From Candidatus Latescibacterota bacterium (lineage in GTDB: Bacteria; Latescibacterota; UBA2968; GCA-2709665), in assembly GCA_965226795.1 (NCBI GenBank), contig CBDDDZ010000005.1:2592001-2656000 (forward strand): a DNA stretch of 64,000 nucleotides, written 5' to 3'. Under the pieces are notes generated by a model, which worked only from the letters and a program-made list of their open reading frames with translations, was not told the DNA's origin and searched no databases. Both the position numbers and the translations under genes were made by a program. Of this stretch, positions 23,948-25,770 are shown piece by piece (positions within the stretch are counted from its first letter, which is position 1; every line of letters begins with the position of its first letter).

Positions 23948-24144
23948 TTATCCTGAATAATTCAAGAAAAAGGTAGTTTCCTTACCCAAGTCATTGTATT
24001 ATATTATGGTTACGCAAATAACCTTACAACAATGAACTGGGGGAAACTACCGTGTATGTTCAAGATAAACATCACAGGATGTCTTTCGCAAGTCTTTCCG
24101 GCAAACAGGTGGAAGCCGCCTTCGATGGGGGCATTCTGACCAGC

Positions 24145-24174
24145 CTGCCTGTGCGTGTACGCACGCAGACAGGC
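24145..24174. repeat. Palindromic micro-insertion 1 (30 bp, in frame, LPVRVRTQTG)
   Basis: GC-CTGCCTGTGCGTGTACGCACGCAGACAG-GC; removal restores TSDSGVMLLRE. Confidence 0.85.
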
Positions 24175-24691
24175 GACAGCGGGGTAATGCTGCTGCGGGA
24201 GGTGGCGTCCAAAATCGGCATTTTGTGTCGGATCATTGAGGCCATAACAGATCGTCGGCATGCAAGTTACGTGGATCACCCGACGGCGGACCTGGTCAGT
24301 CAGCGTGTTTTTCAGATGGCGTGTGGGTATGAGGATGCGAACGACTGCAATGCGTTACGCGGGGACCCCGGCTTCAAGACGGCCTGTGATCGGTTGCCCG
24401 TCACCGGTGCGGATCTGGCCAGTCAACCCACGATGAGTCGGTTCGAGAACCGGATCACCAGAGGTGACTTATATCGGATCGCGAAGGCCTTTGCCGATGG
24501 GTTTATCGCCTCGTATAAGAAACCGCCCAAAGCCATCCTGCTGGATATCGATGACACGGAAGATAAGGTGTATGGGTCTGGGCAGTTGTCGTTATTCAAT
24601 GCGTATTTTAAGAGTTATTGCTACCAACCGTTGCATATCTATGAAGGGCAAACCGGCAAGTTGATCACGACGATTCTGCGTCCTGGCGTGC

Positions 24692-24710
24692 CTGCCTGCT
24701 GCAGGCAGGC
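24692..24710. repeat. Palindromic micro-insertion 2 (19 bp, frameshifting)
   Basis: GCCTGCCTGC-T-GCAGGCAGGC perfect inverted repeat; removal restores LRPGVRPSGKQIVSILKRVV. Confidence 0.85.
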
Positions 24711-25126
24711 GGCCTTCGGGCAAACAGATCGTTTCGATTCTCAAACGGGTGGTCGCCTACCTGCGTCGAGCCTGGCCCAATGTGGCGATCCTGTTGCGTG
24801 GCGATTCTCATTTTTCGTGTCCGGAAGTGCACGCGTTGTGTGACACACAGAATGTGTATTTTGCCCTTGGACAAAGCGGCAACGCTCTGCTGCTGCCCCT
24901 GGCGCAACCCTTGATGGACCAGGCCAAAGCGCTGTATGCCGTTTCCGGCAAAACCGTGCGCCTATATAACGCGTGGGACTATCAGGCCAGCACCTGGGCT
25001 TCGCCACGCCGCATCATCTGCAAGGCGGAAGTAACACCGCAAGGAGACAATATCCGTTTCGTGGCCACCAACCTGCAACGCGCCAACCCTTCATTCATCT
25101 ACAAAACCGTCTATTGTGGACGCGGC

Positions 25127-25147
25127 CTGTCTGCCGGCCAGGCAGGC
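25127..25147. repeat. Palindromic micro-insertion 3 (21 bp, in frame, LSAGQAG)
   Basis: GC-CTGTCTGCCGGCCAGGCAG-GC; removal restores YCGRGRMEGFIK. Confidence 0.85.
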
Positions 25148-25353
25148 AGGATGGAAGGCTTCATCAAGAATCACAAGACCTTTCTCCATTCCGATCGCAC
25201 CTCTTGTCACACCTTCGAGGCCAATCACTTCCGGCTCTTTCTCCACAGCGCCGCCTATGTCCTGTTGCAGACCTTGGCTGAAATGGGATTGCGCGGCACC
25301 AAGTGGACGAACGCCCAGTATAATACGCTGCAAAATCGCCTCTTGAAGGTCGC

Positions 25354-25383
25354 CTGCCTGCGCCGGATGCTCGGCAGGCAGGC
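25354..25383. repeat. Palindromic micro-insertion 4 (30 bp, in frame, CLRRMLGRQA)
   Basis: GC-CTGCCTGCGCCGGATGCTCGGCAGGCAG-GC; removal restores RLLKVAGRV. Confidence 0.85.
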
Positions 25384-25741
25384 CGGACGCGTCTGTGAGA
25401 TGAAAACCAAAATCACGTTCCATCTGCCAACGGCATTTCCACTCAAACACCTCTATGCCAAGATCCTCTACAATCTGGCAACGTCCGTACCATAACGCAT
25501 CGTCCGGTTAAATCCGCCTTCACGTCTTGATCGACACCACCAAAACACAGGGAGACCTCTGTGCTTTTGACCGCGACAACAAGGTCAACCTGACGCCCCC
25601 GCCCTACCGTGTTACCAGCACGTGCCACTGAAGCGGCTTGAAAACTCCAAATCCGGCACAGCCAGGTCTTTCCTTCCGTTTCTCGATTCACTCGGAACCT
25701 GTTTCTGCTTCCTGAAACTGCAATCCGTGACGATTCATGAA

Positions 25742-25770
25742 TTGATCAGGTTAACATGGTTCGCTATAAT
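25742..25770 (+). promoter_or_regulatory. Hybrid sigma70 promoter (-35 inside the IS right end, -10 chromosomal)
   Basis: TTGATC (25742-47, within the IR)-17 bp-TATAAT (25765-70). Confidence 0.65.

Follow-up and report, generated by a model that had tools for sequence, protein, structure and literature searches.

Mobile hairpins of 19–36 nt, with the unit CCTG(C/T)CTG-core-CAG(A/G)CAGG, form a real and widespread family of DNA elements, apparently undescribed in the literature searched, whose mechanism of movement we infer here. Four copies lie in one IS1380 transposase gene of a Latescibacterota genome (G000), within the window, that is the stretch of 64,000 nucleotides that was analysed. 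The unit pattern has exactly four matches in the window versus 0 in 100 shuffles. In the whole genome there are 106 exact-ended matches, five of which are nested re-readings of one copy, versus 0, 0 and 0 in three order-5 Markov genomes. Empty-site alleles support the proposal of the initial annotation that the inserts belong to a family of very short non-autonomous mobile hairpins. A CG bulge, a strand polarity and the reuse of insertion hot spots are features that the annotation did not contain.

Four inserts in an IS1380 transposase gene

The host of the four inserts is an IS1380-family insertion sequence (positions 23952–25750, + strand) with ends CCTGA...TCAGG and terminal inverted repeats at 23952–23964 (left, +) and 25738–25750 (right, +). 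Intact IS1380 copies are bracketed by a CTAG duplication, the 4-bp duplication of this insertion sequence being CTAG/TTAG. The window copy is flanked by TTAT (23948–23951) and TTAA (25751–25754), one base off the 4-bp duplication of other copies. Its transposase gene (PF13701; 24052–25495, + strand) is frameshifted by insert 2, and both ORF halves correspond to DDE_Tnp_1_4 / IS1380.

The inserts lie where they were initially annotated and have the lengths given there. Insert 1 (24144–24173, 30 nt) is a bulged form with the minus strand as its folding strand, and insert 2 (24691–24709, 19 nt) is an unbulged short form to which no strand is assigned. Insert 3 (25126–25146, 21 nt), a short form, and insert 4 (25353–25382, 30 nt), a bulged form, are on the plus strand. 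Deletion of all four units by script gives 448 codons with zero internal stops. Inserts 1, 3 and 4 keep the reading frame, and the three peptides attributed to them (LPVRVRTQTG, LSAGQAG and CLRRMLGRQA) are all present in ORFs of the window. In-frame status does not imply tolerance, however, as insert 3 separates the R from the E in the catalytic signature Y(2)R(3)E(6)K. According to the accessible text of PMC2266710, this motif was defined for IS4 and its glutamate is catalytic in IS4-family enzymes.

Alignment to other IS1380 copies, a check suggested at the outset, shows all four sites empty in the three intact copies of the same genome and in one copy of G058 (L205), which is 92.7% identical outside the inserts. 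Read support was examined on contigs of public runs. Logan contigs span without gaps site 1 (run X11), site 2 (X1 and X11) and site 4 (X1, X5 and X11), site 3 is covered by two overlapping contig pieces (X1), and one allele from run X5 has no insert at site 2. The locus is covered by contigs of four runs from four studies, one of which may be the source of the assembly. Several runs holding the stretch of the window are labelled sponge metagenome; contigs from RNA-labelled runs cover the locus and do not demonstrate transcription.

A mosaic IS1380 copy (G000:C5:1913436-1914752) has a 438-codon open frame despite inserts 3 and 4, and offers a natural experiment on whether activity survives a split catalytic signature. 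Another copy (G000:C5:1553150-1554672; L765) differs from the intact copies by 10 substitutions and by 28 deletions of 1–27 bp, the deletions arising from some unusual process or from a consensus error at this locus.

Mapped onto intact IS1380, insertions of the family occupy five positions in all. Site 1 has received 30-, 27- and 19-nt variants across IS1380 copies, site 3 the 21-nt variant and, in G045, a 33-nt variant, and site 4 the 30-nt variant and, in G053, a 21-nt variant. The IS1380 copies of G053, 71% identical, have flanks of their own lineage up to the junction, which indicates separate insertion events. Counted conservatively, with one messy fragment dropped and the 27- and 30-mers of close copies merged, there were eight events. 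Their confinement to five positions or fewer has a p value of 3e-5 when 340 R^C/G^Y positions are considered and of 0.17 when the 15 G^CNGG positions are considered. Thus, sequence preference suffices to account for the hot spots. Protein tolerance is no explanation, since site 1 also took a frameshifting 19-mer and an insert at site 3 splits the catalytic signature.

Unit, target and distribution of the family

The GC present on both sides of each insert had been taken for a target duplication, and this is wrong. A unit CTG...CAG within a duplicated GC is formally equal to a unit CCTG...CAGG, starting one base earlier, between G and C, which is how the inserts of the window sit; sites with other flanks are therefore decisive. 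In a group II intron, a site with a G^T junction has an identical empty allele in two copies, without duplication, and A^C, C^C and G^T sites in repeats have empty alleles without target duplication as well. A 33-nt in-frame insert in a homocysteine S-methyltransferase gene is missing in five of five relatives, again with no duplication. The empty alleles put the whole flank outside the unit. Insertion of IS200/IS605 elements likewise leaves no target duplication. Along the folding strand, position +1 of the target is C in 182 of 241 distinct sites and position −1 is a purine in 192 of 241; G is enriched at +3/+4, and the flank logo of these 241 sites holds no conserved 4-mer comparable to a GTAG-like tag. 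Local folding at empty targets is slightly stronger than at controls (p = 0.04). A search for guide–target covariation brought out no second family, CCCG-ended patterns giving chance-level matches or one match.

Long forms consist of an 8-bp outer stem, a one-sided unpaired CG, a variable inner stem of 3–6 bp and a small loop. The inner stem occurs in 60 of 120 distinct matches from phage contigs versus 6 of 99 for a control pattern with one base changed per arm. At arm position 5, where the pattern allowed both bases, the 61 stem-bearing phage sites have T-G 31 times and C-A once, which indicates that one strand is the folded one. A wobble count of 74:2 and the inner-pair table are partly forced by the search patterns and the stem filter, and the phage set alone was used. 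An unbiased scan of the genome for CG-bulged hairpins placed the family first, with 65 and 14 matches versus at most 6. Lengths of long forms are divisible by three at 223 of 241 sites versus 34 of 99 controls. Short forms (19, 20 and 21 nt) have neither the bulge nor the triplet rule; the form most often met in phages is the perfect 20-mer (28/132), and the 21-mer folds poorly (z −1.5). Elements are also nested within one another, and the peptides that they add to proteins have 7–12 residues.

The 106 matches in G000, together with eight relaxed copies, fall into 33 site clusters. IS1380 is thus not the particular target that had been considered, the ∼33 distinct sites genome-wide being found in IS1380, IS256, IS4-like and DUF772-type insertion sequences, a group II intron, REP-like repeats and single-copy genes. 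One larger repeat carries 49 copies, and another 11 copies with seven different cores at one position. DNA present in at least three copies holds 20 of the 33 sites, versus 71 of 400 control sites in intergenic DNA and 22 of 400 in coding DNA, as set by crude in-house gene calls. Two larger dispersed repeat families of ∼80–90 copies each (for example at C1:9200-9400 and C2:556770-556900) host most element copies; one of the larger host repeats is ∼250 bp long with T-rich hairpins and one begins with GTGTCCCGTCC. A loop of type I HsdM (G000:C5:356292, L023; L743–L747) contains differing in-frame repeat inserts in five of six genomes, namely CCTG-family units in two and a longer hairpin repeat in three, with none in G053.

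The bulged pattern is found in 40 of 168 genomes of the phylum, and also in phage contigs and metagenomes. Record titles among the matches listed cover Verrucomicrobiota, Desulfobacterales, Brocadia/Kuenenia, Methylomirabilis, Bacteroidota, Nitrospinota, WOR-3, Zetaproteobacteria, Gallionella and others, and the cross-phylum sample yields at least 71 distinct stem-bearing sites from at least 130 matches. Related phage or prophage contigs (L379, L380, L392, L401, L406, L407, L411, L416 and L431) carry short forms near head-tail, cement and capsid genes, with several copies in some contigs.

Over 22 genomes of the bacterial family, copy number is bimodal, with eight rich genomes (53–179 copies) and 14 poor ones (0–14), these counts including hitch-hiking copies. 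In a recA tree covering 20 of the 22, rich and poor genomes are sisters (117 copies in G053 versus 4 in G057, 179 in G060 versus 14 in G059, 97 in G040 versus 2 in G041), and G045, with 122 copies, sits inside an otherwise poor clade. Many different cores are listed for G053 and G040. Bursts or losses of the element are recent and repeated. Between G053 and G057, orthologous spacers have been reshuffled so much that they give no clean junctions. IS608-type elements insert preferentially into the lagging-strand template. Along two complete chromosomes the orientations of the present element are interspersed (49/48 in G040; 54/63 in G053, with 100 of 117 places listed), hitch-hiking copies confounding the comparison. 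An apparent replichore bias was a listing artefact, the fuller listing showing interspersed orientations.

Mechanism of movement and the mobilising enzyme

The explanation to which we give an even chance is that a trans-acting HUH (Y1/RAYT-like) enzyme excises the 19–36 nt element in the form of a folded single strand and ligates it into its target. Such an enzyme would read the stem and the bulge of the hairpin, nick both of its feet and attach the unit at an R^C target. The survival of frame-keeping variants in genes would maintain the triplet lengths, and the enrichment in insertion sequences and repeats would stem from neutrality, from amplification by the host repeat and perhaps from preference. 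The lineage of the window insertion sequence would have taken four hits; it is frameshifted, and gene conversion or copying in trans then likely brought it to three loci. Precise ends, absence of duplication, a single folded strand and a mark made of unpaired bases fit a single-strand cleavage–ligation enzyme, and jumps in copy number on several branches are what the gain or loss of a helper gene should produce. Folded single strands are read via unpaired bases by TnpA-REP and IS200/IS605 transposases, and also by relaxases and integron integrases, according to the accessible text of PMC8266576.

Several observations weaken this HUH model. No enzyme gene of G000 is flanked by the element, no tag is found and the R^C junction is unlike the CT/CA of TnpA-REP. 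Orientations are not clustered along the two chromosomes, where hitch-hiking copies confound, and Y1 genes overall do not track copy number. Moreover, short forms have no bulge, the 21-mer folds poorly and folding at empty targets is only slightly above that of controls. A broader proposal is more doubtful, although conceivable: a cross-phylum class in which one hairpin of 19–36 nt would be its own left and right end, served by an enzyme outside the described RAYT groups. Its 5′ CCTG may pair with the CNGG target, and its members would be seamless peptide cassettes and triplet-selected hyperparasites of genes and mobile elements.

No mobilising enzyme resides in the window, as initially annotated, and the suggested co-occurring enzyme gene flanked by the same ends was not found in G000, where no gene is bracketed by the element. 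Nor was any gene found enclosed by unpaired half-sites, and clustering of 2027 ORFs by 190 element loci brought out no recurring enzyme, only related phage genes. Tests of enzyme presence in the 22 genomes (8 rich versus 14 poor) led to rejection of many helpers: Y1_Tnp overall (in 15/22 genomes, absent from rich G045), GIY-YIG (absent from G000), DUF559 (strong matches in 8/8 rich but also 6/14 poor), GxxExxY (19/22), IS91 Y2 (mainly in poor genomes), a four-helix-bundle protein (absent from three rich genomes), an integron-type integrase (in 4/8 rich genomes) and IS1380 itself (at least 15 copies in G049 but 6 elements, and short matches only in rich G040, G050 and G060). A GIY-YIG match, mostly in a frame of ∼630–700 aa, exists in 20 of the 22 genomes; that G000 has none may be due to an assembly gap.

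An RM-linked RAYT (G000 C2:153689), alone among the candidate families tested, follows copy number in part: it has orthologues of 72–87% in 6/8 rich and 0/14 poor genomes (Fisher p = 0.0004, the genomes being kin and not independent), is missing from rich G045 and G060, and is flanked by its own REP. Since five of the genomes with this RAYT also have a type I RM locus in common, a shared mobile gene pool may explain the match, and the RAYT is a lead only among candidate mobilisers. RM-linked RAYTs as a described group are not borne out by the accessible text of PMC5581495. Two near-identical DUF1156 methyltransferase-like ORFs of ∼1200 aa (G000:C2:163365-172746; L011 and L012), each with a Y1/RAYT domain inside, flank an IS1380 copy; a stand-alone RAYT, accompanied by a REP array of its own, is found 10 kb upstream. 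Among 34 Y1 loci examined, none has the element in the flanking arrays of its Y1 gene; seven hold one or two copies which, where examined, are inside other repeats or an adjacent insertion sequence. A GTGG-tagged REP flanking a second RAYT clade (L183, L757 and L758; G000 C2:236281 and ∼50 more) shares the 8-mer CCTGTCTG with the arm of the element, a resemblance possibly due to common origin or to chance. Rich G060 lacks this REP, which each of the 14 remaining genomes of the genus carries. In G053 it is itself an insertion target of the element.

Other explanations account for parts of these data. An integron-integrase-like tyrosine or serine recombinase, acting on the folded bulged strand as IntI does on attC and inserting into R^C, is rather unlikely. 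IntI also reads attC by extrahelical bases and on one folded strand (accessible text of PMC8266576), a PF13495 integrase match exists in G000 and the lack of target duplication fits a recombinase. On the other hand, strong PF13495 matches are found in four of the eight rich genomes (G000, G056, G058 and G040) and in four of the 14 poorer ones (G041, G042, G043 and G059), element junctions are not G^TT as in integron recombination, and a crossover at the very foot of a 19–36 nt hairpin would probably leave no room for two binding sites. Equally improbable is the absence of a dedicated enzyme, with stable hairpin DNA, or hairpin RNA after reverse transcription, being trapped where the nucleases of other mobile elements, or repair, have nicked or broken the DNA. 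Break capture usually leaves ragged ends, whereas the 106 matches are exact at both ends and, by comparison with empty alleles, nothing of the flank is lost or gained; the target has an orientation with respect to the bulge strand, a one-base change of the arms leaves chance-level matches only and the same nucleotide is reused. Capture would nevertheless explain why so many sites, above controls, sit in multicopy DNA; copies are found inside one another and inside RAYT-linked REPs, reverse transcriptases are present and the yeast mitochondrial GC clusters are an analogue, of unresolved mechanism in the accessible text of PMC4478555.

A role for the host insertion sequence or for the host itself is harder to sustain. 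Host defence, disabling mobile genes by hairpins at conserved catalytic motifs, is very unlikely even though the hot spots fall in conserved transposase motifs, one of them within the catalytic signature, and many sites are in insertion sequences (IS1380, IS256, IS4-like and DUF772-type) and a group II intron. The G^CNGG preference explains the hot spots (p = 0.17), the three intact IS1380 copies of G000 are untouched, triplet lengths spare reading frames, copies are also found in the homocysteine methyltransferase gene and in phage structural-gene regions, and one host repeat has 49 filled copies. Least probable, and largely refuted, is a DDE-type MITE with a GC duplication moved by the IS1380 transposase, the ends of that insertion sequence being likewise CCTG...CAGG. 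The first four bases do match and most junctions have GC on both sides, but the G^T, A^C and C^C empty alleles are without duplication while IS1380 makes one of 4 bp (CTAG/TTAG), and the copy numbers of insertion sequence and element disagree in G049, G040, G050 and G060 as given above.

Relation to known systems and significance

The element works like REP/REPIN DNA yet departs from it in three defining REP tests. In the accessible parts of PMC8266576, PMC6006769 and PMC3733652, REPs and REPINs with their TnpA-REP (RAYT) are likewise multicopy imperfect hairpins (20–40 nt) with a stem bulge and one active strand; copies lie in frame inside genes, those of subclass 2.4 even inside tnpA-REP genes, and a trans-acting enzyme is presumed. 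The irregularity of the stem-loop on one strand, a REP criterion, appears in the present sequences as the CG bulge and the T-G bias. In the same sources, however, REPs have a GTAG, GTGG or CGTC tag at the foot of the hairpin, which the element does not, and a REPIN is a doublet, whereas the mobile unit here is one hairpin ending at the stem feet. TnpA-REP cleaves at CT (or CA) outside the hairpin (PMC8266576), whereas the junction of the element is R^C at the stem feet. REP families are lineage-specific, whereas identical variants of the element span phyla and phages, and a cognate RAYT is flanked by its repeats, whereas RAYT genes at the 34 Y1 loci are flanked by other repeats.

The ends of IS200/IS605 elements (IS608 and ISDra2) are comparable in that hairpins are recognized on a single strand by unpaired bases and the target is short and one-sided (accessible text of PMC8266576). 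The element differs from them by having no separate left and right ends, a total of 19–36 nt, a loose target (R^C / G^CNGG) and no lagging-strand pattern, as far as hitch-hiking copies allow a comparison. It is neither a MITE, having no duplication, nor a Rickettsia palindromic element, given its size. MITEs, these palindromic elements included, are similarly non-autonomous with terminal inverted repeats and in-frame gene fusions, the Rickettsia elements measuring ∼150 bp in the accessible text of PMC10969869. Unlike for MITEs, no autonomous insertion sequence with the ends of the element was found, the four bases shared with IS1380 not being accompanied by co-occurrence. Yeast mitochondrial GC clusters are short GC-rich palindromes too, mobile, merging together and of open mechanism, but carry AG/ACT duplications and are organellar (PMC4478555, in its accessible part), neither of which holds for the element. 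Integron attC sites have R boxes, a G^TT crossover and a cassette array, whereas the element is without a GTT junction and its copies are dispersed. In line with the initial annotation that no named family fits, no description of a CCTGYCTG-core-CAGRCAGG family was found in the literature searched, most subscription papers and the supplements of REP papers, which could list the sequences, lying outside it.

Few DNA units for which clean filled and empty alleles exist are as short as these hairpins. Near-identical genomes with 117 versus 4 and 179 versus 14 copies make the hunt for the enzyme a direct subtraction. If a dedicated enzyme exists, it would be a new case of single-strand DNA transposition, and its ability to insert a short payload of variable core without a scar, at a loosely defined target, would make it a useful tool. 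Across many bacterial groups, the element adds peptides to proteins, breaks transposases and confounds annotation.
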